Below, one piece after another: positions 46-62,899 of a DNA stretch of 64,000 nt. Made by a program: the position numbers and the translations under genes. How positions within the stretch are numbered: position 1 is the first letter of the stretch; every line of letters begins with the position of its first letter. The notes under the pieces are model-generated. The model was not told where the DNA came from, did not search any database, and saw only the letters and a list, made by a program, of their open reading frames with translations. Origin of the DNA: Hormiphora californensis (taxonomy: Eukaryota > Animalia > Ctenophora); NCBI GenBank assembly GCA_020137815.1, contig CM035355.1, positions 7,316,001 to 7,380,000 of the forward strand, in the 5' to 3' direction.

Positions 46-12572
<12,527 letters not shown>

Positions 12573-12969
12573 CCTACTTCGAAGTGGTATGGATGTATAT
12601 GTTAATTTATAGCTTAAATAAAACAAATCGGATCATATTTAGGTCAAGTCACAGATATAATACACGATCACTTATTATCTCATTATCAAAAGTCACATCA
12701 GTAGGATATTATTAGGATTTCGATATACGTATCTTTTCCCAACACCACCTACATACTGTCACAGCCATTGTAATAGTTTAGATTTGTTATCGGTTTATCA
12801 AAAAACATAATCCATATTGTATTGGTAATTGGTCTTTTAATCCCTGTTATATACAAATTCTGAGAGAGCAGCCCCGATTTTGATAAAACTCAACATTCGA
12901 GTTTCATTCAATTCGGGGCTGTTCTCTCTCACTTTAATGATCAATTTTCCTATATAATTTCCACTATAG

Positions 12970-13885
12970 TTAAAATGGAGAATACAGATTTCGAACATTC
13001 TTATACTGAACTTCAGTGTCCGAGTTCCATGGGTCTGATTTAGTTTTTCTGGCAACTCCGGAAGGATTATAAAATTCGGCAAGAGTCTTTGGAGATTTTG
13101 GGCTCGACATACGCTTGTGGGTCCTCAACCACTCCTTATATTTTGCATCTGCTTTTTCTTTTCGTTCCTTCTCCGACTGTTCCATCTTCTCTTTCTCTTC
13201 TTTCTCTTTTTCACTTGCAACTTTTTCTTGCTCCTCTTTTTTGTCTTTCCAACTCTTGACAGCGATAATGGACTTTTCCAAAATTTCTTGTTTTTCCGCC
13301 TCTTTCTTAGCTTTTTCTTCCTCAATTTTCTTACATTGGGCCTCCTTCTTTTCCTTCAAAACAACCAACTTTTTCTTTTCCCATTCTCTCACAGCAGATT
13401 CATTTTGTTTCAGTTTCTCTTTCGCCTTTTTCTTTTCTTCTTTCAACTTCTTCTTTTCTTCTTTTTTCCGTTTCCGTTCCTTTTCTTGACAAAATGACAT
13501 CTCTTCGGCCTTTTTGAGAATCCACTTTTCCCATTCAACACTTTCTCCGCAGTCCTGAAGTAAATTGAATTTAAAAAGCAAACAATTAATTCTGCTAAAC
13601 TTGTTATTTTGATCCTATGATATAAACATACTTTATTGGTCAGTGACTCACCTCAATAATGCTATCATCGTTCACAGTAGCTGTTTTCCGAATCCTTCTC
13701 GAGCTACTCCTTGTAGAATGGCGGGGTGTTGAGGACGGTAGACTTCCCTCAAAGTCATCTTCGTACACAGTGTCGTCGTGAGAAACTGAAATGAATTTTT
13801 GCTAAAATTCCGTTGTCAGAGTAATTGTCGAACAATATTTAGTTTTGGCTTTACCGTGTTTGACTGTCGTGGTAGATTCTGACAT
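12970..13885 (-). CDS. CCDC34: Coiled-coil domain-containing protein 34-like (3 exons)
   Basis: Exons 13885-13855, 13785-13652 and ~13555-12970 with GT-AG sites. K/E-rich coiled coil with spaced Trp motifs (WEKWILKK, REWEKKK, KSWKDKK, YKEWL) and C-terminal FYNP...PW, resembling CCDC34. Confidence 0.6.
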
Positions 13886-14886: not shown

Positions 14887-17800
14887 TCAAGAATTAAACC
14901 ATGATGAGCTCCAGGGTGCAGCTTCCCGTTTTCCCGCCGTCGCACTATCAGTCAGTTCTTTAGCCTCTTCCTTTGTTAGTTGCAGCACCGTACTTAGAAC
15001 AGGGACCAACCTCTCCTTCGCAGCCGCATCCTGTAGTACTGACATACTGGAGAGAGAGATGAGGGCGTTATATTAGAACAACACAGGAAAAGTTATGTCA
15101 CCGTTATAGGAATTATCAGTAGGGCTGCTGGTACACTTTTTGTGACCAAAAGGGTCTGACTGAGTCAAGGTTCTGTACATTCATTAGTCACTGGCCTACA
15201 AATTACGGTGAGGATCGTTAACCGATGTATCACATGCACAATCTTTACCTTCAGTAAGATGTTTTTGAGGTATTCCACATTAGTGTTGTCTCGTCCAATC
15301 ATCTTCTCCAGCCTTCTAACCTCAGTTTTTAGCACCATACATTGCTCCTGCGAGGGGAATTATAATAAAGGACTGTATACAACTTTAGACTTTATTATGG
15401 TGAGCAACTAATTCACAGAATGTGTTGGAAAGAAGGAACAATTTGTATTTCAAACTTTTCAACACTACTTTAAACAAATTAATTTGAGTTTGCCGTCAAT
15501 CGTTCCTGATAACTGTGTTAGCATCTATTCTCTAATCTTTTAGATCTCTGTTAGGCCTACTTTAACTTAACTTACGAGTGATATCAGTGAAGAGTTTGTT
15601 GTTGGCCGGCGTGCAACGGGTGTTTTAGGATGACCGTTACGAGTAATTATGACATATGTATCACTAAGAGTGATTTTGAAGACGTGTTAGCAGGAGAAGT
15701 ATTTAGTAATGATTATAAGGGTAGTGATTTGTTAGTGTGCCTTGGGAGGGGTGACACTGTTTGTCCGTCGTCTGTCCATAAACCTCAGTTGTGGCATCTT
15801 CTCAAAGCCTGTTACAACATGCTTCCGGCGTCGGCACCGTTTTCTGTTCCTGGAGACCAGACTGATCTGAGAGAGTCGTTTGCAAAGCTGCACAAGGATC
15901 TGGTTTCCACTATCTCTGCTTTGGTCAAACCTATGGAGAATAGTAGAAGTGATATTGGTGGTGGTGATCCAGAGGAACCGGTTACACCTACGATGAAACA
16001 CTATGTGAATATTAAAACTGGCATCAATGAGGAAGGAGGGCCAGGATTCTGTGCGAAGAAGTGGACTGATGAGGTCAAACCCAAAGTGGAAACTGCGTTG
16101 AAGACGATACCGGTGGTGAGATCCAGAGTGAACAGTGACCATACCCGGCTGTATTTCCCTGATGAAGACCAGATGAAGGAAGCAGAGAAAGTTTTGACTC
16201 CACTTGCACAGGACTGTTCCATGTCATTTTTCTCAGAGGAGGCCAAGAAGCTTGAACCAAAGGTAACTATAAATGATTTGGACCCAGACCTACTGAAAAA
16301 GGAGACTATCCTGGCAGCGATTTTGGACAAGAATGTGGATATCAGAAAACTTTATCATGAGGACAAGAAGTTGAAGGTGGTGTTTGTGAGCGAAAGAGAC
16401 AGGTATGCAGTGATCCAGATGGCTCCAGAGATCCGGAGGCTTTTGTCTACTAACGGGGATAAGATCAACTTGGGTCTTCGGCAACACTTTGTCAAGAACA
16501 GGTATCATGTGATACAGTGTTTTCACTGTCAAGGATTTGGGCATATAGCAGGATCGATTTACTGCCCCCAAAAGGATACTCCAATATGCTGCTTCTGTGC
16601 TGGATCGCATCAGACGAAAGACTGTAGAGCAAAGAAGAACAACGAGACTGGTAGGATGAAATGTGTGAACTGTGAAGTTGGAGGATCAAGAGAGGACAAG
16701 AAGTATTCGAAGACCCATACGGCTTCAAGTATGTGGTGCCCTTCCTACATCAATGAACGAGCACGGCTTATGGAGAGGACTGCAGGTGTAAGCAAAGAGG
16801 AAAAAAACCTGTACTGGACGAGGACCAAGGAGGAACTACACAGGAAAAGACTTGGAAGATTGGGACACTAAATGTCCGCTCTCTTATTAACAAAACTGGA
16901 GGTGTTATTTCGCATCTGGAAGAGGAGGATTGTGATATTTGTCTTATACAGGACTCAGGAGACATTTTTGAAATCAACGGACACTGGAAAACTTCAAGAA
17001 ATCAGAGATAATGGATGGGACATTTTCTCATGCCCCAGAGGAGACAGAGGAGGTGGAGGAATCGGAATACTTTTTCGAGATGGCATAGTTCTTCGGCAGT
17101 GTCCAGTGAAGACCAAGTATAAGTCTTTTCAAGTACAAGAGGTTCTGATCAGTGACAGAGATCAACCGAAGAGAATCTGTAATGTCTATCGTCCTCCGTA
17201 CACACCGAGGTCGAGACTTACAGAAGCAACTTTCCTGTCGGAGTTTGGTGACTACCTTTCCGAGCTTGTTATGAAGCAAGGTACTCCGATCATCGCTGGT
17301 GACCTAAACTTCCAGGTGCAAGATGATAATAACTTCTATGCAAGGAAACTTTTGGAGCTGCTGGATTCATTTGATCTTCAACAAAGAGTACCAATGTTGC
17401 CTACTCACCAGCTGGGAGGAACCTTGGACTTGGTGATAACTACAAGAGAAACTTCTCTAGGTGACATATCCATATTTCCTAATGGTACTACATCAGATCA
17501 CTTCCTAGTACAGTTTGGGATTCAAGTGAGACCTGACCTGTCGAACTCCTGTCTGAAGAAATCAGTGCATCGAGAATACATGGATTACAAGTCAGTGGAT
17601 TTGGAAGGATTTAAAGAGGACTTGCGGAAGGCAGATTTTGAAGGAGGTAGGGATCCAGAGGAGGGCGTGGTGAATTTCTATCGTTGGCTGGAAGGTATAG
17701 TGGAGAAGCGAGTACCGAGGAAACGGGTGAGGACTGGTAAAAAGTTTAAGCCATGGAGGGATGAGGAACTTAGAGGATTACTTCGAGAGAGGAGGAATGC

Positions 17801-20800
17801 AGAACGGTGTTGGCGGAAACTTGGAACTGTGGATGCGAAACGGAGATTTAATGACCTGAAGAAACTGTATGGAAAGATGGATAGGGAAAAGAGGTCACTT
17901 TTCATTAAAGAGGACTTGGTTGCTGCCAAAGGTGACCCAAAGAAACTGCAAAGTAAGCTCCAGAAACTCCTTGGAAAAGCTGAAACAATTCTTCCTGAAA
18001 CAACAAACACCAAGAACTTGGCAGATGATTTCTCCCAGTTCTTTAGTTCCAAAGTGGAAAAAATTCGAACCCAAGTCAATGAGGAGCAGAAGCAAGCTGG
18101 CGACTTTGAGGAACCCGGAAAAGCCTGTCATTCAACATGGAAGGAATTCAAAGAGATATCGGAGGAGGAACTTGTTAAGGTGGTGAAGTCTATGTCAAGC
18201 AAACATTGTGACCTTGATCCGTTGCCCACTTGGGTAGTAAAGGAGTGCATTAGGGATCTTGCTCCGGTATTAACATCGATGGTAAACCAATCTCTACATC
18301 AGTCTACAGTTGCAGAATCTCTCCAGAAAGCTATCGTGTTTCCTACCATCAAGAATCTGTACGGAGATAGGGAAGCTCTCAGTAACTATCGTCCTGTCTC
18401 AAATATCCCATTCCTTTCTAAGCTCCTAGAAAAGGTGGTGCTCACGCAGCTGAATGAGTACCTTGAAAGCAATTCACTTCTGGGCAAGCATCAATCCGGT
18501 TATCGTGCTGGTCACAGTTGCGAAACTCTGTTAGCCAGCATGTTTGATGATGTATTAGGTGAGATGGATAAAGGAAATGTTGTTGCTCTGATCTGTTTGG
18601 ACATGAGTGCCGCATTTGATACGGTGGATCATGAAAAGTTGTTGGAGGTGTTGCAGAAACGGTTTGGAGTGGATGGTGATCCTCTTCAATGGTTTAAGAG
18701 CTACCTGAGTTCCAGATCTTTTAGAGTCTCGGTTGGTGATTGTCTCTCGGATACCCTGGCCTTACTCTGTGGAGTGCCCCAGGGGTCTCTTCTTGGTCCT
18801 ATTTTGTTTCTACTTTACATTGAAGCTGTGCAAGATATTGTGGAACCATATGGACTCCGGATAAAGTTATATGCAGACGACTCCCAGCTCTATGTGAGTC
18901 TGGTTCCTACGGATTCTACTGGCTGGTCTAGGACGAAGGTGGATATTGAGGAGTGTCTGGCGAAGGTGAAGCGGTGGATGGTGGGGCAGTGGTTGAAGTG
19001 TAATGAGGCCAAAACGGAATTCATCCTGCTTGGAAAGCGCAGTTCTTTGAGTAAAATCTCTTTCGATCCAGTTATCAACTTTGGAGGAACAGAAATCTTC
19101 CCCAGTGAATGTAGTGGAGCAGATGGGAAAACCTTGGGAATACTCTTGGACCACAATCTTAATCTTGAACGACAGGTTAACAATGTGAGGAAACAGTGTG
19201 GGCTGATACTACGGAATCTTTGGCAGTTACACAGATGTTTTGATATTCAAACGAAGATAATGTTGGTGAAACAATTGATTATATCGAGGATTGATTACAG
19301 TAATATTCTGTACTGTGGACTTCCGGCCCGAGTTCTTGGTGGACTCCAGAAAACACTAAACTCCTGTGTACGCTTTATATTCAACATCCATGGGCATCAG
19401 GAGGATTACTCGGAATACTTCAGGCAGTGTCATATTTTACCCATCTCCTACAGACTGGACTTCAAAGCCTGTCTAATCGCTTATAAGATAGTCTATGGAA
19501 CGGCACCAGGTTACCTCCAGGAGATGGTTCCTCTTGATAAAAGCTGGGGAGTCTCCAGGACAACAAGGATGACTAGTGTTATTGATCCTTACAGATTAAA
19601 ACACCCCAAGATGACCAGTATCAACGCCAATTCTAAACTGAGACGTAGGAGACTATCAGTATTTCTGCCTGCTATTTGGAATGAGCTACCCCTCGAGTTA
19701 AGGTCGATCCCCAACGTTGATACCTTTAAAGCTCGCCTGAAAACACATCTCTTCGTTGGTGCATTTGGAGTGAGTGATGGGGAACCCATGGCTGAGTTGT
19801 AATGTTTGTTGTAGTTGTGGGGTCTGCGGGCAACCAGTGTCATCCTCTCTCTAGTCATGTTATTAAATCACTATCTGGTATCCTTTTTTGAGCAGGTGTG
19901 AGTATAGCGTGTTTAAAATTATATCTACAGGTTTATGGGACCAGTTATTCCCCCAGTTTGATAAGTCCAGTTAATTTGGTTTTCCATATATTGTCTTTTT
20001 CAACCAGAATTGTTCGTGTGCGATATTTTTACTCTAGGATATACCGCTCTGATGACTCGTCGGAACATCGCCAATATTTTGACATGTTTCCGTCGGGTAT
20101 GGGCGGTATATAAGCGCGGAATATTATTATTATTATTATTATTTATTTTGTACTTAGCTCCCGGAAACGGTCGAGCTGGAAATCATTTACAAAGAAAAAA
20201 GGGTTCGATAATTGATTGTTTAATTTTCATTCAATAAAACTAATACCTGTAGGGCAGCTGCGTTGTGTTCGCTCTCTCGTAACAGGGTACTAAGATGGGA
20301 TACCTTACTTTGAGTTATGTCATCTTCCTTCGGTGTCGTATCTAGTGGGATCGGGAGGGGGTATATGGATTATGTGGTATATGGGGGTAGCGGGTGGTGT
20401 TGACTGTTGGTTGTACAGGATAGTTGCATGGTATTGGGTACCAGGACCCGTGCCAAAGTCTCAAAGACAAACTAAACTTTGAATTACCTGACATATTAGA
20501 AAATGAAAATCGAGAGTTGGACCGAGAGAGGGCAGAGTTGTTCAGGACTTCCTCAAGACCAGAAATGGAGGGTGCAGGACTTTCTGAACCTTCTGCTCCC
20601 AAGCGTACTTGCTGAGGGTACAATATGGGGTTTGGGGGACTACTACATAAAACACCGCCAGTGAACTGTCTGGCGGCGCCGACCAGATCTGAGCGCCAGA
20701 CAGCCAGTGGGCACACTGGGCAGTGAACAAGGCAAGTATGAATGAAATATCAGACAGTACCTTAGGGCCTACGGGGGTTGAGCACTCTGCTAAATGAGGT

Positions 20801-36300: not shown

Positions 36301-39300
36301 CAATACACAGGGAGAGATGGAAGTTCAACTTCTATCACAGATGCCCCACTCCTCCCCCACAGTTGGCCAAGTGCCCAGTATTCACCACATTTGGCCCAGT
36401 GCACCCCCCGCGCCATAAGCTAAATAGGTCATTATACTCACGGGATCTGAGAGGCGGTCCAAGTTGTCAAAAGAATATCTGCGTGATGTTGTTGAAATAG
36501 AGAAAGGGGGGGGCATATAACCATGGTAACCACCTATAACCATGGTAACCACGTATAACCATGGTAACCACCTATAACCATGGTAACCACACATAACCAT
36601 GGTAACCACCTTTAACCATGGTAACCACATATAACCATGGTAACCACCTATAACCATGGTAACCACCTTATATGCCCATGGTAACCATCTATAACCATGG
36701 TAACCACCTATAACCATGGTAACCACCTATAACCCTGGTAACCACCTATAACCATGGTAACCACCTTATATGCCCATGGTAACCATCTATAACCATGGTA
36801 ACCACCTATAACCATGGTAACCACCTATAACCATGGTAACCACCTATAACCATGGTAACCACGTGTAACTACGGTAACCACCTGGGGTGGCCCCTGCACC
36901 TAGCGATCGAGGTGCCGCGAAGTGGCGCCGAGGGAGCTGCGGCAGGGGGTTTGGGGGGCGCAGCCCCCCAACGGGGTCCAGGGGCAGAGCCCATGGTGGG
37001 GGCTAGGGGGCGAAGCCCCCGAAAAATTTTAGTTTTTGGTGAATTTTAAGCATTTTAGAACAACTTTTTTTAACAATTTTCAGCCCTTTTAGAAAACTTT
37101 TTCAACGAGTTTCAGTCATAAGGGGCGAAGCCCCCTGGAAATTTTAAAATGAATTAAAGCAATTAGAACAATTATTTATCGATTTCAGCCCTTGGTGGGG
37201 GCAATTTTCAGCCCTTTTAGAAAACTTTTTTAATAAGTCTGAAACTGTTCTGCCAGGAGGAGTGTCAGACGGAAAGTTGGCAGGGGATTTTGCAGAGTTC
37301 TTCAGTGGGAAGATTGAGAAGATTCGGACAGCGGTTCGGGATGAGCAAGAGGAAGGTTCTGAGGAGCTCACTGTGGATTCTCTGCCTGCGCCTACCTGTA
37401 CTCTAACCAAGTTTGAGGAAATCAGAGTTAATGAATTAGTTCGGGTTGTCAAGGAATGTCATCGAAGTCTTGTGATCTGACCCTATTCCGACGCTGGTTG
37501 TGAAAGACTGCCTTGAAGAACTAGCGCCGATCCTGACGGACATTATCAACAAATCCCTCTACGATCTACTGTTCCAGATATTATGCAGAAAGCATTGGTG
37601 ATGCCAACGATAAAGAACCCCAATGGGGACACTGATTATTTTCGAACTACAGGCCGGTTTCTAACATATCGTTTGTATCGAGGTACTGGAGAAAGTTGTT
37701 GCTCAATCAGTTAAACTCATACCTATGGATGAACGACCTACTCAATGCAGACCAATCTGGTATAGGGCGGGGCATAGTTGTGAAACACGCTTGCTGGAAT
37801 GTTTGATGACCTGTTGAAGGATTTGGATTCTGCAAGTATCGGCCCTTCTGCTGCTTGACATGAGTGCGGCTTTCGATACTGTGGATCATTCGAAGCTGAT
37901 TGGAATTTTGGAGGCAAGGTTTGGGTAAGAGTCTGCGCTTGAATGGTTTAGAAGCTACCTTAGCAAAAGGACTTTTAAAGTGAATGTTCGTGGGGAACTC
38001 TCGGCGGCGATTGCACTAATCTGTGGAGTCCCACAGGGGTCCCTTCTTGGACCTGTTTTATTCTTGCTGTACATTGAGGAACTTCAGGATATTGTTCGTC
38101 CCTATGGCCTAAAGATCAAACTGTATGCAGATGACTCTCAGATATACTTTGGACTGGTTCCGAGTGATGCAGAGGGGTGGAGTTCCAGTAAAAGACCCTA
38201 GAGGATTGTCTCAAGATGTCAAAACATGGATGGTTACCATGGCTTAAGTGTAATGAGGACAAGACGGAGTTTCTACTGTTGGGAAAGACAAGCTCCTTGG
38301 AAAGATGGCATTTGATCCAGAGATCCAGTTGGAGGTTCGGTGTCAGGCCTATGGAATGTAAGGGGACGACAGGAAAGACCCTTGGTGTTCTCATGGACCA
38401 TCAGTTGACTCTTGAGAGACAGATATTCAATGTTAAGAAACAGTGTGGCCTTATGCTCAAGAACTTGTGGCAGGTCAACAAGTGTCTTGACAAAGATACC
38501 AAGATTATGTTGGTCAAGCAACTGGTCATTTCCCGGATTGATTACTGCAACATTCTTTACTATGGACTACCTAAGAGGATATTGAGGTATCTTCAGAAGA
38601 CCCTGAATTCTTGTGTGCGTTTCATTTTCAATCTAAAGGGACATCAGGATGACTACACAGAATACTACAAGGAGGCACACATTCTACCTATTAGCAGAGG
38701 CTGACTTTCAAGGCATGTCTTTTGGCGTACAAGATTGTACGAGGCACTGCACCCAAGTATCTGATGGACCTGGTCCCTCGTGATGACAATCTGAACTGTA
38801 AAACTACCCGATCTACCTCAGTTCCAGATTTCTTCAGGTTGAAATATCCAAAGCTCTCAAGTGTAAATGCGAATTCTAAGTTAAGAAGGAGGAGGATCTC
38901 TGTATTCCTGCCGGAAGTGTGGAACTCCCTGCCATTGGAGTTAAGGTCTGTTCACCCTGTTGAACTCTTCAAGACAAGGCTTAAGACCCGCTATTTAAGG
39001 AAGCTTTCGTTGATCCAGAGAGCAGTAGCACCTGAGTCATCGTCTTGTGCACTGTTCTGTTCTGGTCTGGGTTTAGTGTTCCCTTGGGCAGACGTTTATT
39101 TAGACAGTGTTATTCCTCATTACATTTACCGGGCTTGCAGTAATAGCTGCTGACTTTTAATAGCTTTGAGAGCTGCTGTCTTTGAGTAGCATGAGAGCTG
39201 CTGACTTTGTAATTTAGCTTATTCAGTGTGAGAGCATTTTTATGCCTATCTAAGTTGGTTCGTATTTTATGAGGCCCGTATTTTCATCAATAAAAGTCTA

Positions 39301-47153: not shown

Positions 47154-47943
47154 TATTCATCCGTTATGTCTAATTACTGTAAGACTCCAATTAGGTTTAA
47201 TACGCTATATATTGCTTTAAACCGTTCATAAAACTACACTAGTCTTAGTCTTACTCCTTGATTTGTACTGTCTAGTAGTACACTCTGCCTATACATTATA
47301 ATGGCCGAACCGCAGCTGTGAAATTCCTACCAGGTGCATGCAGGGTGCTAGAACAGTGTTGTGTCATTTGTCCTTTTATCACGGCTATGTAGTGCCGTCT
47401 CGATTATTAAATAGTTTAGGCTCTATCTAAACATGATCTAGATTATAGACATGATTTAGACTTGATCCAGACACATGTGTTGTGTAGCAAGATACACTCC
47501 TTCCGGCTTTCACACACACTCCACCATCTCATCTCAACTTCCTTGGTTTCTAGTTTGATACATTCCACCAACTTCCTAGGTCACATTGCCATTTTAGGGA
47601 GATAGAGACTTTTGTGTAACAGGTATTTTAGTGGTGTGTTACAGAAGTAGGTTAGTACACCTGGTACACCAACCTTGTACCAAAATCAGAATTTGGGATG
47701 GATGGGGGATATAAAGAGAGAGCATGGAGGAGGAAGAGAGATATTGAGGGAGAGAGATAGGGAAGAATGAAAGGATATATGGCTTGTTATTAGGCTTACA
47801 GCTTTTGCTCACAGTAACTGATATTACATCTAGGTTCCTAGCTGCGTGACACACACACACTAGGTTTAATAAACACTGGCTGTATCAACAATAAATTGTG
47901 GGATGGGAGATCATGATCCAGTGATTGAATGAAGAGCTTCCGG

Positions 47944-47988
<45 letters not shown>

Positions 47989-47989
<1 letters not shown>

Positions 47990-50226
47990 AGGTATTTAAC
48001 TGCTGCTTCAAGCAAGGCATTTACCCCTGGAACGCCAGTATAATCACCCCGCTCCATAAAAAAGGGAGTACAAAGAATCCGGACAACTACCGAGCGGTCT
48101 CCGTGAGTAGTGCAATTGGTAAGCTAATGAGTTGCATATTACTGGAACGACTAAAGGAGTTCAGAAGTATCAAATGTCCTGACCACCCCAACCAACTTGG
48201 TTTCCGGAAGAAGTGCCAGACGAACGACCATATCTTCACAATGCTGACACTTACCCAGAAAGCTAAACAGCAAAAGAAACCCCTGTACGCAATAATGGTC
48301 GATTTCCGCAAGGCTTTCGATAGCATTCCAAGAGAGGCACTTTTCCTAAAACTAGCAAGGATGGGAATCACCGGGAATTTTTACAACATTCTAAGGGATA
48401 TGTATGGAAAATCCTCAGGGAGAATCAAGCTATCAGGCCATGTAAGCAGGGAGTTCCCTATCAGAAAGGGGACCGAACAAGGGCACCCACTCTCACCTGA
48501 GTTGTTCAAGATTTTCTTGTACGACATGTCCCCACTCCTGGATAAAGGGACTGACAGCAGTGAGAATCCATCCCTCAGAAATATCAAGGTGACACACCTC
48601 CTGTTCGCCGACGATCTGATTATGCTCTCCCTTTCGAGAAAGGCTGCCCAAAAGCAGGTTAAAATACTTTGCAATTATTGCTCAACCTGGGGGCTAGAAA
48701 TGAACCTCGGAAAGACCAAGCTACTTGCTTTCAATGAGATTGATAAAGCCCAAAAACAACCCATATACCTATCCAGCACAGAGAAACTTGACGAAGCACC
48801 CAGCTACTGCTACCTGGGCATCAAAATGACATCCTCTGGAGACTTCAGTATTGCCTCAAGAGCAGACCTCCACCTCAAAGCCACCAGAGCAGTATATGGA
48901 CTCAAGAGGACCATTAGGAGAGACAAGGTATCCTTCAGTGCTGGGAGAGCGCTATTTAATTCACTGATCAAGCCAATTCTACTGTATGGAGCTCCAATTT
49001 GGGCACCTATGGACACCACGGTATCTCGGATCATCAAGGAGTCAGTACACGGGGAAGCCAACAGCAGCCTTCTTCGAAAGATCTCAGCCGATAAATCTGA
49101 ACGACTCCTGCTCTCCTACCTGAAATGGCTCACAGGCGTTCATAGCAAAACACAGAATGCAGCAATCTGGGGTGATAGTAATACCATCCCCCTCAATGTG
49201 GAAGCACTCGACATAACTGTCAAGTACCTATCCAGGATTAAAACCCTCGATCCAACCTGGCTGGTCAATGCTGCATACCATGAGCAGAAGAACCTTGGAC
49301 TACCCTGGTACAGATCATTAGTTCGACTCCTTAACACTGACCCCCTCTATAGATTGAACCACTTTGATGCCCTGGAAATCAAGGAAGGACGGAGGAAAGA
49401 ACCGGAATTACCAAAAGTTAAACCCGCCCGAGCACAGACCCACGCCCCGAGTAGAATCTTCAGAGTCCCCTTAATTCAACAAAGAATTGCATCAACTTAT
49501 TCCAAAGCCTGGAGAAACACTATCACTACCTCAAGGAAACTCGACTTCTATCAGAACTTCGACCGGGAAAACGGTGTACAATCCTACCTGGCTAATGTAA
49601 CGAATTTTACCCATCGAGCAGCCCTGGCCAAGCTGAGAATGAGCTCACACTCCCTTAACATTGAAGTAGGGCGTCACCAAGGAATCGCCCGGGAGAATAG
49701 AAACTGCCCATACTGCAACATCACAATGGGTATAAGCATAACGGAAACCGAGCTCCATGTGATCGACACCTGTGACCTCTACAACCCGGAAAGACAGACC
49801 CTGCTAACCGACCTCCCCAAAGGACAAGACCCCTCCCAGCCCATTCCCATTATCTCCTCGATCATGTACACCACATCAGAGCATTCACCTCGAACCTCCG
49901 GGCTCCTTGCGCGTTTCGCCAGCGCTATCGAGTGCAAGCGCGAGCGTTGGATGTCATCAATGACACCTCCCACTTAGCTTTCTCCCCTGTACTAGCTAAG
50001 AAGTGGCAGCAGGCTCCTTTTGTTTAAGACCCCCTTCAGCGTTTATTGTTTTAATACCTAACGACCCCGGAATTTATATGTGTGTGAGTGGATTTTTAAC
50101 TTGATGTTATAAGTTTCACGAACAGGAAAGTGCTGATCAAGGGCAGTGCTCTCCAGTTCTTACACTCATGGGAACATGAGTAGAACTATTTTTCAAACCG
50201 TGTCAAAACCGTGTCAAACCGTGTCA
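47989..50226 (+). mobile_element. 5'-truncated RTEX-like non-LTR retrotransposon embedded in a (CA)n tract
   Basis: Open RT frame to 49977 (NYRAVSV, VDFRKAFDSI, GTEQGHPLSP, LLFADD) with C-terminal LRMSSHSL..E.GR...CPYC...HVIDTC zinc motif. The 3' end is (AAACCGTGTC)x3. (CA)n lies on both sides (47945-47987 and 50226-~50380). Clade is inferred. Confidence 0.85.
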
Positions 50227-58914: not shown

Positions 58915-61900
58915 TATATATATGTTCGCAAAAGGCAAGCTTCCCCTCGTCCGACCCGAAGTTGCTAACATACAGTCCGATATTTAATAATGGGAACCGG
59001 GGGCGCATTAAACAAAATTCGATTTGACAAATATTCGTTTCTCGGTTCAGGATCTAATGGCACACTTTGTTTCGATTGTTAAAGTCCATTTATTTTTCAC
59101 CCAAAAACTTAAATTTAAAACTTTTGTGGCGTGCGCTACACGTTAACTATATTGTTTATAGCAAGAAAGGGCTATTTCACAACGAATTCCCTGGTTACTA
59201 TGGTAACCAACTCCGTTGTCATGGTAAATTAATCGAACTCTATCGAGTCTATCGCCAGCAACTGTATGAAACTTTCACAAAGGCTCAAAGTTTGAATATC
59301 AAATTTGCCAAAACTGTGCAGGGGCAAAAGTTTTAATTGATTATTATTAATTAATTAATTAGAAAATCAAAAATCCGGCTCCGTTATGACTCGTATTTAT
59401 ACTACTAGAACATACATACAAAGTTTCATTTCGAAATTTCAAACGGTGTGGCCACAGTTTGAATATCAAAGTTGCAAAAATTGTGCAGGGGCAAACAAAA
59501 TTGTGCAGGGGCAAAATTTTAATTACTTATAATTAATTGGATAATTAATTTTGACTATTCCCACTTTTTGTCGATCTTTCTATATGCATGAACTACATTA
59601 CTACAAAATTTTAGGTCGTTATTTATAGCAGAACAGAAAATATACCATTTTTAGTTGCCTTGTTCAGGAAATGTGCAGGGGGTCGAAATCAGCGGTGCAG
59701 GGGAAAGATGGTGCAGGGGCAAAATTTTAATTACTTATAATTAATTAGTTAAATTAAAAATAAGAAATCCAGCCTTTTTATGACTCGTAGTTATACTACT
59801 AGAACATGCATACAAAGTTTCATTTCGAAAAAACAAACAGTTTGGCCACAGTTTGAATATCAAAATTGCAAAAAATGTGCAGGGGTATTTGCCCCTGTAC
59901 ATTTTCAAAAAAAGTGCAGGGGGCCCTAAAAAAGTCAATTTTTGCATGCCTATAACTAATTAATTAATTAATTATCAATACTCCCACTTTTCGAATATCA
60001 TTTTTTATGATTGAAGAACATTCCTACAAAGTTTCAAGTCGATATTTCAAGCAGAACGGAAGATAAACCGTGTGCAGGGGCACGCGTGCAGGGGCAAAAA
60101 ATCAAAATGTACAGGGCAATGTGCAGGGGCAAATTTTGATAGCTTATAATTAATTAATTAATTAAAAAATCAAAAATCCGGCCACGTTATGACACGTAGT
60201 TATACTACTAGAACATGTCTACAAAATTTCAGGTCTATATCTCAAACGATGTGGCCGCAATCGCTGCCTGAAATTTGCCCCCCCCCCCCCCCCCCCCCCC
60301 CCGAAAATCTTCTATTCTTTGTATATATGTTCGCAAAAGGCAAGCTTCCCCTCGTCCGACCCGAAGTTGGAATCATATGGGTTTAGTTTGTCGAACCGGC
60401 AAGTTGCTAACATATTTCAAGTCTTCACTACTTCTCAAATGATCTAATCCCATACATTCAGTCTAATACCAAAATAAAATTGTAAATCCTATTAAAAATA
60501 GAGACAAAAATAATGGCACCAAAATGTGAAATGCCCTTGTAGTTAGTGGGAGCAGAACAAAATCAATTTCTTATCTCACCACGTTAATAAATAATTAATT
60601 AAGTTGATGCTCTTATTTGTTTTAGAGGTGCTCAAGTTCTACCGCCAGCCACTGGATGAAATTTATCCATTTCATTGTGCACAATGCACAGGCTTTGGTT
60701 ACGAAGTTACCCCTTGCCAGCGCGTGCAAAGGTCGCCCGGCGACAGAGTGTGAGGTGTCTTCGATACCAAGCACAGGCTTGTGTAACAAAAAGGGGCATT
60801 TTTATAGCTTATTGTTCATCATAACCTGAAATAAATAATTTTCATTACTTTCACAAAGGCTCAAAGTTTGAATATCAAATTTGTGTAGGCGCAAATTGGT
60901 GCAGGGGCAAAAGTTTTAATTGATTATTATTAATTAATTAATTAGAAAATCAAAAATCCGGCTCCGTTATGACTCGTATTTATACTACTAGAACATACAT
61001 ACAAAGTTTCATTTCGAAATTTCAAACGGTGTGGCCACAGTTTGAATATCAAAGTTGCAAAAATTGTGCAGGGGCAAACAAAATTGTGCAGGGGCAAAAG
61101 TTTTAATTACTTATAATTAATTAATTAATTAAAAAATCAGAAATCCGGCTCTTTTATGACTCGTAGTTATACCACTAGAACATGCATGCAAAGTCTCATT
61201 TCGAAATATCAAACGGTGTGGCCACAGTTCGAATATCAAATTTACCGAAAATGTGCAGGGGCAACATTTGCCGCAAATGTACAGGGGCAAAATGTGCAGG
61301 GGCAAAATTTTAATTGCTTATAATTAATTGGATAATTAATTTTGACTATTCCCACTTTTTGTCGATCTTTCTATATGCATGAACTACATTACTACAAAAT
61401 GTTAGGTCGTTATTTATAGCAGAACAGAAAATATACCATTTTTAGTTGCCTTGTTCAGGAAATGTGCAGGGGGTCGAAATCAGCGGTGCAGGGGAAAGAT
61501 GGTGCAGGGGCAAAATTTTAATTACTTATAATTAATTAGTTAAATTAAAAATAAGAAATCCAGCCTTTTTATGACTCGTAGTTATACTACTAGAACATGC
61601 ATACAAAGTTTCATTTCGAAAAAACAAACGGTTTGGCCACAGTTTGAATATCAAAATTGCAAAAAATGTGCAGGGGTATTTGCCCCTGTACATTTTCAAA
61701 AAAAGTGCAGGGGGCCCTAAAAAAGTCCATTTTTGCATGCCTATAACTAATTAATTAATTAATTTTCAATACTCCCACTTTTCGAATATCATTTTTATGA
61801 TTGAAGAACATTCCTACAAAGTTTCAAGTCGATATTTCAAGCAGAACGGAAGATAAACCGTGTGCAGGGGCACGCGTGCAGGGGCAAAAAATCAAAATGT

Positions 61901-62310
61901 ACAGGGGCAATGTGCAGGGGCAAATTTTGATAGCTTATAATTAATTAATTAATTAAAAAATCAAAAATCCGGCCACGTTATGACACGTAGTTATACTACT
62001 AGAACATGCCTACAAAATTTCAGGTCGATATCTCAAACGATGTGGCCGCAATCGCTGCCTGAAATTTGCCCCCCCCCCCCCCCCCCCCCCCCGAAAATCT
62101 TCTATTCTTCTGCTATATAGGGCCGTCACTTTTTGGATTTGGTGCAGGGGCAAAAATTTTTTTTTTCGTTTTTTCTGTTTTCTTCGGGTCGGAGGTGCCT
62201 GCCGGCACCTAAATAGGGCCGTCACTTTTTGGATTTGGTGCAGGGGCAAAAATTTTTTTTTTCGTTTTTTCTGTTTTCTTCGGGTCGGAGGTGCCTGCCG
62301 GCACCTAAAT
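58915..62310 (+). mobile_element. Non-coding Helentron/HINE-like element with internal tandem arrays and a ~1-kb duplication
   Basis: Subterminal inverted repeat TCCGACCCGAAG (~58950, repeated at ~60355) / CTTCGGGTCGGA (~62182, ~62278), followed by the hairpin AGGTGCC-TGCC-GGCACCT. Interior built of GTGCAGGGGCAA...TAATTAATTAA units; 59270-60320 is duplicated at ~60848-62110. Confidence 0.6.
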
Positions 62311-62899
62311 ATTTTAATGATCAATCATCACAATTAGAATTCATGGCAGCTGGTATTTTAGCCTGATTTAAGCCTGATTTGTAGTGTTAGTACACAATCA
62401 TTGCCTAATTAACACGCTGATTCTATCTTGATGTGTAATTGGGATCATCACTGCTTTATTATTTTATTATCAACGTTTTTTTGACTGATGAATCATTTGA
62501 ATGACAGGTCAATTTAAATTCTCGTAATTTGTATCTTGCGAAATTCTTTACACGTCAACTTTATATTCAAGTTTAATAATTATTACCATTACGTACCATG
62601 TCTCCACAATAACGAAATTAGGCGGAATTAGATAACCACAAAATATGAAGTGTTCGTAGATGTATAATAATTGATTCAAGGAGTGGCAAAATTTACCGCC
62701 TTGCATAATATCTTGGATCTAAATTTAGAATCATTTTTCGGTTGATTTATCTTTAAAAATGACCGTTTTAGGTAAATTTTCCTTTATTCTAGATTTTAGA
62801 ATTCTACATTCTTTTCTCAAAGAAAAAATGTGCTGACGTTTTTCTCTGCTCACTTTTCTCACCTCCATTCCCCAATTTAAATAGCTCAGCACTGCCCAA

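Follow-up and report, generated by a model that had tools for sequence, protein, structure and literature searches.

The window, by which is meant the whole 64,000-nt stretch of DNA analysed (Hormiphora californensis GCA_020137815.1, contig CM035355.1, positions 7,316,001-7,380,000, forward strand), contains an APE/reverse transcriptase (RT) LINE of a pleurobrachiid comb jelly that is headed by the host spliced leader (SL). The element lies in an intron of a golgin gene on the minus strand, which encodes a coiled-coil protein ending in a GRIP domain; the intron now spans 15350-20246 (exon ends picked by eye) and was about 200 letters long before the insertion. The element itself is on the plus strand, antisense to its host gene, and consists of an SL copy (15448-15488; 41 of about 43 letters), a 5' UTR of 141 letters with a T-rich start and no upstream ATG (15489-15629), ORF1 (15630-16871; 413 amino acids, with three CCHC-like knuckles towards the C-terminus), an ORF2 region for the APE endonuclease and RT in the -1 frame that overlaps the end of ORF1 (16802-19802), a 3' UTR (19803-20122), and an (ATT)7 tail (20123-20144), the repeats of which (20123-20143) run into a match to the target, TATTT, at 20140-20144. 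A second, 5'-truncated copy of the family with 88.8% identity and an (ATT)n tail is found on the minus strand at 8945-10560, and the leader is absent from its 5' junction. An earlier note on this DNA had described a full-length SL-headed LINE; its leader, 141-nt UTR (the same length was measured from leader to first ATG), ORF1 and (ATT)n tail were borne out, while ORF2 proved to be broken and the target site duplication (TSD) to be wrong.

A Pfam search with ORF1, which has 18 homologues, returned no match, RRM included, and three CCHC-like patterns are present. With ORF2, domains PF03372/PF14529 and PF00078 were detected above cut-off, together with at least 120 homologues that carry no clade names; its C end presumably resembles those of L2/Daphne/Crack. 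In the window copy the supposedly intact ORF2 is interrupted: 7 letters inserted at 16949-16955 part the first endonuclease motif from the remainder, and this insertion is missing from contigs of three sequencing runs and from relatives such as locus L007. ORF2 does not naturally begin with the ATG of position 16872, and mostly has no ATG 5' of its first motif. A slippery heptamer, A AAA AAC, is positioned in the ORF1 frame at 16802-16808 and kept in all seven clade members; it is the predicted site of a -1 ribosomal frameshift, and the sequence suggests that this is the likely route from ORF1 into ORF2. No stimulatory hairpin was found 3' of the slippery site (z -0.7 to +1.4).

The empty allele was recovered as a contig (run X5, record 25), in which the leader is missing apart from TTT; the insertion is thus polymorphic. 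Position 15450 corresponds to letter 358 of this contig and position 20155 to its letter 369, so that the empty site exceeds by 11 letters the length predicted from TTTGTA, the TSD proposed in the earlier note, and the offset fits TATTT exactly (15446-15450 = 20140-20144). A TSD of 0-5 letters, TATTT, is therefore possible. The TATTT of the left junction (15446-15450) is present in the empty site, and as its last TTT (15448-15450) belongs to target and leader alike (microhomology), the inserted leader letters that are certain number 38. Judging from the length of the empty site, of which the 10 letters in between are not displayed, both TTTGTA copies likely pre-date the insertion.

LINEs normally depend on an internal 5' promoter, and ctenophores use SL trans-splicing. 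Positions 15448-15488 match the 44-letter H. californensis SL published in PMC8527503 at 41/41 over its final 41 letters; the earlier identification of this 41-mer as the host SL is thereby upheld, also by the mRNA-like appearance of 23 of the 34 loci retrieved in an SL search. The 41-mer occurs once in the window, where the chance of an exact match is approximately 1e-18 (log10 -23.3 + 5.1). Between the leaders of Mnemiopsis and Hormiphora only AATTTGAG is mostly conserved, according to that paper (PMC8527503). An SL RNA gene, locus L022, consists of the leader and a GTAAG donor in a 778-letter unit with 5S rRNA, and carries conserved upstream sequence of its own. Compared with this gene and three mRNA-like loci, the SL copy of the element is without the 5' AG. 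It is followed by TTTGCC and, as previously claimed, no GT donor; since TTTGCC stands here where L022 has GTAAG, an SL RNA gene is rejected, as is an insertion into one, the target being a golgin intron. The joint between leader and UTR falls exactly at the GT donor boundary of the SL RNA gene.

The presence of the leader is attributed here, with a probability of roughly 0.7, to the origin of element copies from RNA onto which a new SL is trans-spliced in every cycle. Contigs of sister copies bear on this proposal. The SL/UTR junction was recovered at a depth of 1475 against 36.1 for the flank in DNA run X1, and of 3040 against 75.2 in DNA run X4, in both cases with no extra letters; the depth of the UTR interior was similar to that of the junction (965-1250 in X1 and 2490 in X4). 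The junction is thus at approximately 40 times the flank in each run, contig depth not being equal to copy number, and the high-depth junction contigs are short, with 12-27 leader and 14-49 UTR letters, under the 31-letter bridging rule. None of the contigs over 15471-15590 (0/6 in X1, 0/7 in X4) starts at 15489 with non-SL sequence upstream; in run X5, eight of 25 contigs over this interval were listed. The sole X11 contig begins 3 letters 3' of the SL/UTR junction, contigs of run X22, a guessed RNA run, barely cover the element, and the remaining runs among X9-X20 were left out of the comparison for their small shares. The SL head is apparently family-wide among sister copies.

Relatives were found among the 34 loci of the SL search, for which an exact 29-letter SL pattern was used; their SL identity is thus partly selected, and they cannot tell how many LINEs are without an SL. 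The 23 mRNA-like loci look like an SL, a short UTR and a host ORF, and the 11 others comprise 10 element-like heads and one SL gene array. Six of the 34 loci are SL-headed LINEs of the element's clade (ORF1 36-85% identical), with long open frames in all six and unrelated flanks. One of these, L007, is a 4.6-kb contig from another dataset that is 84% identical, with the same SL/UTR junction at a different insertion site; the other five are SL-headed with different UTRs and ORF1 identities of 36-47%. An SL also heads L020, which has an unrelated ORF and an endonuclease. The ORFs of L016, L031 and L032 appear LINE-ORF1-like by eye and were counted as element-like only; no supporting Pfam or pairwise match was obtained for them, nor for L032 any match in PDB. 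In viral_contigs, the SL pattern had no matches and none of the 8 pattern matches to ORF1 was confirmed, so that the relatives compared here are biased towards SL-headed ones. The concern that the SL head was a one-off event is answered by the junction depth in X1 and X4, where no other upstream sequence was seen, and by the six SL-headed clade relatives.

Chimeras between LINEs and small nuclear RNAs have been described and SL RNA is abundant, and hence the RT might be thought to jump from element RNA to SL RNA or a free SL exon, giving a chimera with no trans-splicing of element RNA. Such a jump is highly improbable in view of the identical junction in high-depth contigs and L007, exactly at the SL donor boundary, and no leader was present on the internal loose ends among those listed. 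The truncated copy, too, is without a leader, which indicates that a leader is not added wherever a copy happens to break off. A junction this exact, a single leader and no tandem relics could be products of ordinary SL processing, with no reuse of the terminal GAG, if one or a few master copies with a normal promoter and outron were trans-spliced like host mRNA and their SL-headed daughters were promoterless dead ends. The window copy is dead anyway, being antisense with a broken ORF2, a single-copy master might escape the contigs, and comparable flatworm loci were interpreted as plain integration products (PMC12582326). Contigs prove presence and not absence, and a master copy that is rare and has a natural outron could go unseen; however, no outron-type contig was among the 13 listed in X1 and X4, while single-locus contigs at depths of 17-69 were retained. 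A LINE family would, moreover, persist only if new copies turned into masters, and six of six clade relatives, albeit SL-selected, are SL-headed with long open frames. Master copies of this kind are accordingly considered improbable.

The 5' UTR is 96% identical between the window copy and L007, while silent sites are 69% identical, indicating constraint far above that on silent sites; with such conservation, leader identity inside the family is no proof of renewal. Between families, silent sites are 20-46% identical and so at or near saturation. A long UTR hairpin was predicted for L003, L008 and L034, with double changes in 6 of 48 pairs over the three sequences; it is weak over five sequences, the z-scores of single sequences lie mostly close to 0, and no weight is placed on it. 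The end of the UTR carries a conserved block, GGTGTTTTAG followed by GATG (15619-15632), which is identical in five of seven clade members and places an acceptor-like TTTTAG one letter 5' of the ORF1 ATG. In 8/11 elements, which are related and not independent, TTTTAG or TTTCAG lies no more than 12 letters from the first ATG, compared to 0/23 mRNA-like loci; a direct joining of the SL to this ATG-proximal acceptor was seen in no contig of four runs.

UTR conservation and the pre-ATG acceptor could also signify that each lineage captured the leader a single time and now inherits it as DNA. Leader and conserved UTR would then form an internal promoter or start element, and the element would provide the leader itself, possibly with cis-splicing to the pre-ATG acceptor. 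In line with this, GT directly follows the leader in L015 and L021, and a nematode SL has an internal promoter role. A like proposal was made for dinoflagellate SL relics (PMC6050394). Inheritance as DNA is nevertheless unlikely, as deeply diverged families and unrelated elements must each keep 43 letters while ctenophore SLs change fast, and the conserved upstream sequence of the SL RNA gene is separate. It must also accommodate the loss of 5' letters in 10 of 11 copies; the 5' ends of the elements fall 0-8 letters short of the leader start. In favour of renewal, and despite silent sites at or near saturation between the families, the 14-letter part of the leader lying 5' of the search pattern agrees with the SL gene over 9-14 letters in 10/11 elements. 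Given that only one of the 11 holds all 43 letters, the leader end would erode if it were not renewed. Tandem SL relics, another feature raised in the earlier note, failed to appear in any of the 11 elements, where two 10-letter matches were at chance level.

Renewal of the SL by trans-splicing would proceed as follows. Transcription would begin upstream of the SL/UTR junction, either by read-through or from a promoter inside the conserved UTR that fires within or before the relic, and the spliceosome would swap the old relic for a new SL at the last AG of the relic. Such replacement would keep tandem relics from piling up and repair 5' erosion. Target-primed reverse transcription would then proceed nearly to the cap, and the cDNA end could join the target by the short TTT match. 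The second acceptor, TTTTAG, may yield a short, host-like translated mRNA, with the -1 frameshift giving access to ORF2. As the window copy is antisense and its ORF2 broken, it is unlikely to be the read-through template itself. The final GAG of the leader makes a poor acceptor; hand-picked host introns in the window end in CAG or TAG in 11/11 cases and in GAG in 0/11. UTR constraint and the GAG end speak against easy acceptance of the earlier note's suggestion that the relic AG is reused as acceptor and no internal promoter is needed. A broader reading, put forward tentatively and as rather doubtful in its entirety, is that this LINE clade has abandoned a 5' end that starts by itself and depends on host trans-splicing at two acceptors: given any transcription from upstream, the weak relic AG would renew the genome RNA, the strong, conserved TTTTAG would make mRNA, the -1 frameshift would set the ORF1:ORF2 ratio, and many of the 718 Hormiphora 'leader loci' would be retroelement heads and not SL RNA genes.

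LINEs rebuild their 5' end and promoter with every copy. Were the rebuilt end a host RNA-processing tag, 5' erosion would be repaired independently of an internal start site. A literature search, conducted without most subscription papers, Repbase and the supplements of PMC8527503 and PMC12220107, revealed no paper on SL-headed ctenophore LINEs, and an animal LINE clade that regularly has the SL as its 5' end, and that likely reaches ORF2 by a -1 frameshift, is likely new. The conserved -1 slippery site, if used, would represent an unusual route to LINE ORF2 expression. The question posed by dinoflagellates, whether an integrated SL acts as promoter or acceptor, can be put directly to the test in an animal for which both a chromosome-level genome and Iso-Seq data exist. 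For annotation, the number of SL genes may be overestimated when leaders are counted in a genome, since 10 of the 11 non-mRNA-like SL loci are element-like heads and one is the SL gene array.

The non-LTR elements NeSL-1 and CRE/SLACS/CZAR insert into SL RNA genes by means of a restriction-like endonuclease; they are alike in their tie to the SL, but the window element has an APE, resides in a golgin intron, is itself headed by the leader and belongs to a family at scattered sites. The Jockey-superfamily (CR1/L2 group) APE LINEs with type I ORF1, as described by Metcalfe and Casane (2014, PMC4120745), share the two ORFs, APE and RT, three CCHC-like knuckles, a simple-repeat tail and 5'-truncated copies; the window element differs in its host-SL 5' end and in the overlap of ORF2 behind a conserved -1 slippery heptamer. 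Host SLs on mobile-element RNA are also indicated for parasitic flatworms, in which SL pieces beside LINE and LTR loci were read as integrated trans-spliced transcripts (PMC12582326), and for Hydra, in which about 30% of TE Iso-Seq reads bear the SL (PMC12220107). The flatworm cases are discarded loci with partial leaders and those of Hydra are RNA only, whereas elements of the window family and clade regularly begin with an almost complete leader, joined at a single exact point, and an empty allele exists for the window element. The SL-relic retrogenes of dinoflagellates, as portrayed in PMC3229502 and PMC6050394, arose from trans-spliced RNA that was reverse transcribed and reinserted with its leader; their cargo is a passive gene of the host, and they show tandem relics, with cutting at an inner AG, while the window element is autonomous in kind (ORF1, endonuclease, RT), has a single leader and inhabits an animal. 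The trypanosome L1Tc/ingi elements are LINEs of a trans-splicing host confronted with the same 5'-end problem, and their solution, the internal promoter Pr77 with unspliced transcripts, is opposite to that proposed for the window element.

The LINE at about 15448-20144 (plus strand) begins with the host spliced leader (SL): AACAATTTGTA is followed by a 41-letter stretch at 15448-15488 and then by TTTGCCGTC. This 41-mer occurs once within the window, has a negligible computed probability of matching by chance, and is identical to the last 41 letters of the 44-letter leader described in the available text of the H. californensis genome paper, which reports it on 56% of Iso-Seq reads and at 718 genome occurrences (PMC8527503); its earlier recognition as the host SL is thereby confirmed. 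Judging from this leader, a pleurobrachiid ctenophore is very likely the host. An exact 29-letter SL search of metagenome contigs returned 35 matches at 34 loci. Twenty-three of the 34 were named mRNA-like by eye (leader at the contig end, long host-type ORF; molecule type not recorded), with the first ATG 1-41 letters past the leader (median 6, n = 23). Ten of the 11 others were element-like, a count that leaves out LINEs lacking a leader since the loci were found through it. The SL RNA gene itself is represented by L022, with GTAAG after the leader, and stretch 263-1513 of this locus holds the gene and its 5S rRNA linkage in a 778-letter tandem repeat unit. That the window leader is itself an SL RNA gene was rejected, as TTTGCCGTC follows it rather than GTAAG. 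From run X22, possibly RNA, 494 contigs mapped, with depth nearly all on the leader and diverse sequences behind it. Because the SL gene and the mRNA-like loci share an AG before the 41-mer, the leader is likely about 43 letters long and the window copy short by two. The 11 SL-headed elements compared keep 35-43 leader letters, and only one has the complete 43. A diverged single-locus copy, seen with runs X1, X4, and X5 on 15530-15570, resembles the leader and UTR start upstream with internal deletions. One single-locus copy has a leader that keeps the 5' AG and lacks 12 internal letters.

Junction depth points to a head shared across the family. Over 15471-15590, a 40-letter X1 contig (depth 1475) spans the leader/UTR junction and carries nothing else, and X4 gave a 45-letter junction contig at depth 3040 and two more at 1485 and 600; UTR-interior contigs have depths of 965-1250 (X1) and 2490 (X4). 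The junction thus stands at about 40 times flank depth, this being contig depth rather than copy number, with junction contigs below bridging-rule length. A start at 15489 with non-leader letters upstream was found in none of the six X1 and seven X4 contigs on this interval, although contigs cannot prove absence; for X5 the listing covered 8 of 25 contigs and omitted one loose end. Locus L007 (4.6 kb, 84% identical to the window element) has the same leader junction at a different insertion site, and L003, L008, L015, L021, and L034 match ORF1 (36-47%) and ORF2, differ in their UTRs, and are leader-headed. Together, the junction depth and the leader heads of L007 and these five clade loci argue against the one-off event that the earlier note had entertained.

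Other relatives were observed. L020 is leader-headed with an endonuclease and an unrelated ORF; it carries 364 letters of flank upstream of the leader, other SL matches in its dataset resemble mRNAs, and should the molecule be RNA, L020 would represent a read-through transcript left unspliced. L016, L031, and L032 are ORF1-type elements by appearance only. L032 (462-1620) has a leader, a short UTR, a lone 318-aa ORF, and an (AAT)n tail, and looks like an ORF1-only, non-autonomous retroelement; the L016 ORF is related to it and frameshifted. In the first 50 letters past the leader, all four have a tiny ORF ahead of the main start codon and resemble one another in a GC-rich motif, and three have TTTCAG or TTTTAG directly behind the leader. 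The window also holds a 5'-truncated family copy at 8945-10560 (minus strand; 88.8% identical, RT frame open for 427 aa), a frameshifted relative at 37235-38991 (plus; about 66% DNA identity), a distant ORF carrying an RT, preceded by a (CA)n run, at 47929-49974 (plus), the latter two being LINE relics with no leader match nearby, and a large diverged tandem array at 59271-62311 with units of several hundred letters.

We infer that the leader was first captured by trans-splicing, because in each of the 11 elements it ends exactly at the SL gene donor. Between families, silent sites have reached or nearly reached saturation, and the heads still match the present SL gene; leaders are reported to vary among ctenophore lineages in the available text of PMC8527503. 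Renewal of the head by trans-splicing is the likely mechanism. In its simplest reading, a fresh SL would be spliced at the last AG of the relic, the DNA-encoded leader copy, but that AG sits in GAG, whereas each of 11 host acceptors chosen by eye reads CAG or TAG, and no RNA read showed such splicing. Dinoflagellate retrogenes, as described in the accessible part of PMC3229502, receive a fresh leader at an internal AG and hold tandem relics, which are absent from the 11 elements here.

Judged by its conservation, the UTR is not inert: between the window element and L007 it is 96% identical, versus 69% at fourfold sites, and among L003, L008, and L034 it is 76-82% identical, versus 32-37%. It terminates in GGTGTTTTAG|GATG in five of seven clade members. 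An acceptor-like TTTTAG or TTTCAG lies at most 12 letters from the first ATG in 8/11 elements and 0/23 mRNA-like loci (the elements are related, so that the count overstates independence), and at least three T occur in the first five letters past the leader in 9/11 and 1/23, respectively. A direct leader-to-GATG join was absent from contigs of four runs. Within the UTR there could be an internal promoter, an outron or intron that has been retained or, more doubtfully, a hairpin hiding inner AGs.

Directly after the leader come the 141-letter 5' UTR (15489-15629), ORF1 (15630-16871; 413 aa, three CCHC-like knuckles), the endonuclease and RT region, and, at the 3' end, an (ATT)7 tail. The empty allele anticipated earlier was recovered in one X5 contig, with 15450 at its letter 358 and 20155 at its letter 369, and flank depth is equal on both sides (36.1 in X1, 75.2 in X4), as expected if one contig crosses; the predicted sequence proved 11 letters too short, and TTTGTA fails as the target-site duplication (TSD) by the same 11 letters. 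A pre-insertion site TTTGTA-TTTAT-TTTGTA, its intervening letters deduced from the offset, fits with TATTT at both junctions, and the TSD is therefore 0-5 letters. At one junction the target matches the tail, and at the other it matches the leader TTT. The insertion lies within a minus-strand gene with a GRIP domain, in an intron of about 200 letters, and the element is thus antisense to this gene. By eye, a compact Lys/Glu-rich gene (about 12950-13800, minus) lies just downstream of the GRIP gene, also on the minus strand, and beyond it come exons resembling a vWA-domain gene. A 7-letter insertion (16949-16955) breaks ORF2 of the window copy and is missing from X1, X4, and X5 contigs and L007; the window copy is likely a dead end.

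Expression of ORF2 is predicted to involve a -1 ribosomal frameshift. An A AAA AAY heptamer in the ORF1 frame (16802-16808 in the window) is present in all seven clade members, 70 letters before the ORF1 stop (58 in L021), even though the codon ahead of it specifies five different residues among them. From the heptamer, the -1 frame extends into the first endonuclease motif, before which Met is absent in five of seven members. Amino-acid constraint in both frames could contribute to this conservation; a search past the heptamer found no stimulatory hairpin. Such a frameshift would be unusual for a LINE. HeT-A and TART are the only non-LTR elements named in the available text of a frameshifting review (PMC5009743).

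The SL head on ctenophore LINEs is real and clade-wide; the literature search, supplements aside, found no published account of it. The anatomy of the window element fits the Jockey superfamily of APE-type LINEs as outlined in the accessible part of PMC4120745. In flatworms, 597 loci with partial leaders beside LTR and LINE elements were excluded as likely integrated trans-spliced transcripts (PMC12582326, available portion), and in Hydra, about 30% of transposable-element Iso-Seq reads bear the SL (PMC12220107, available portion).
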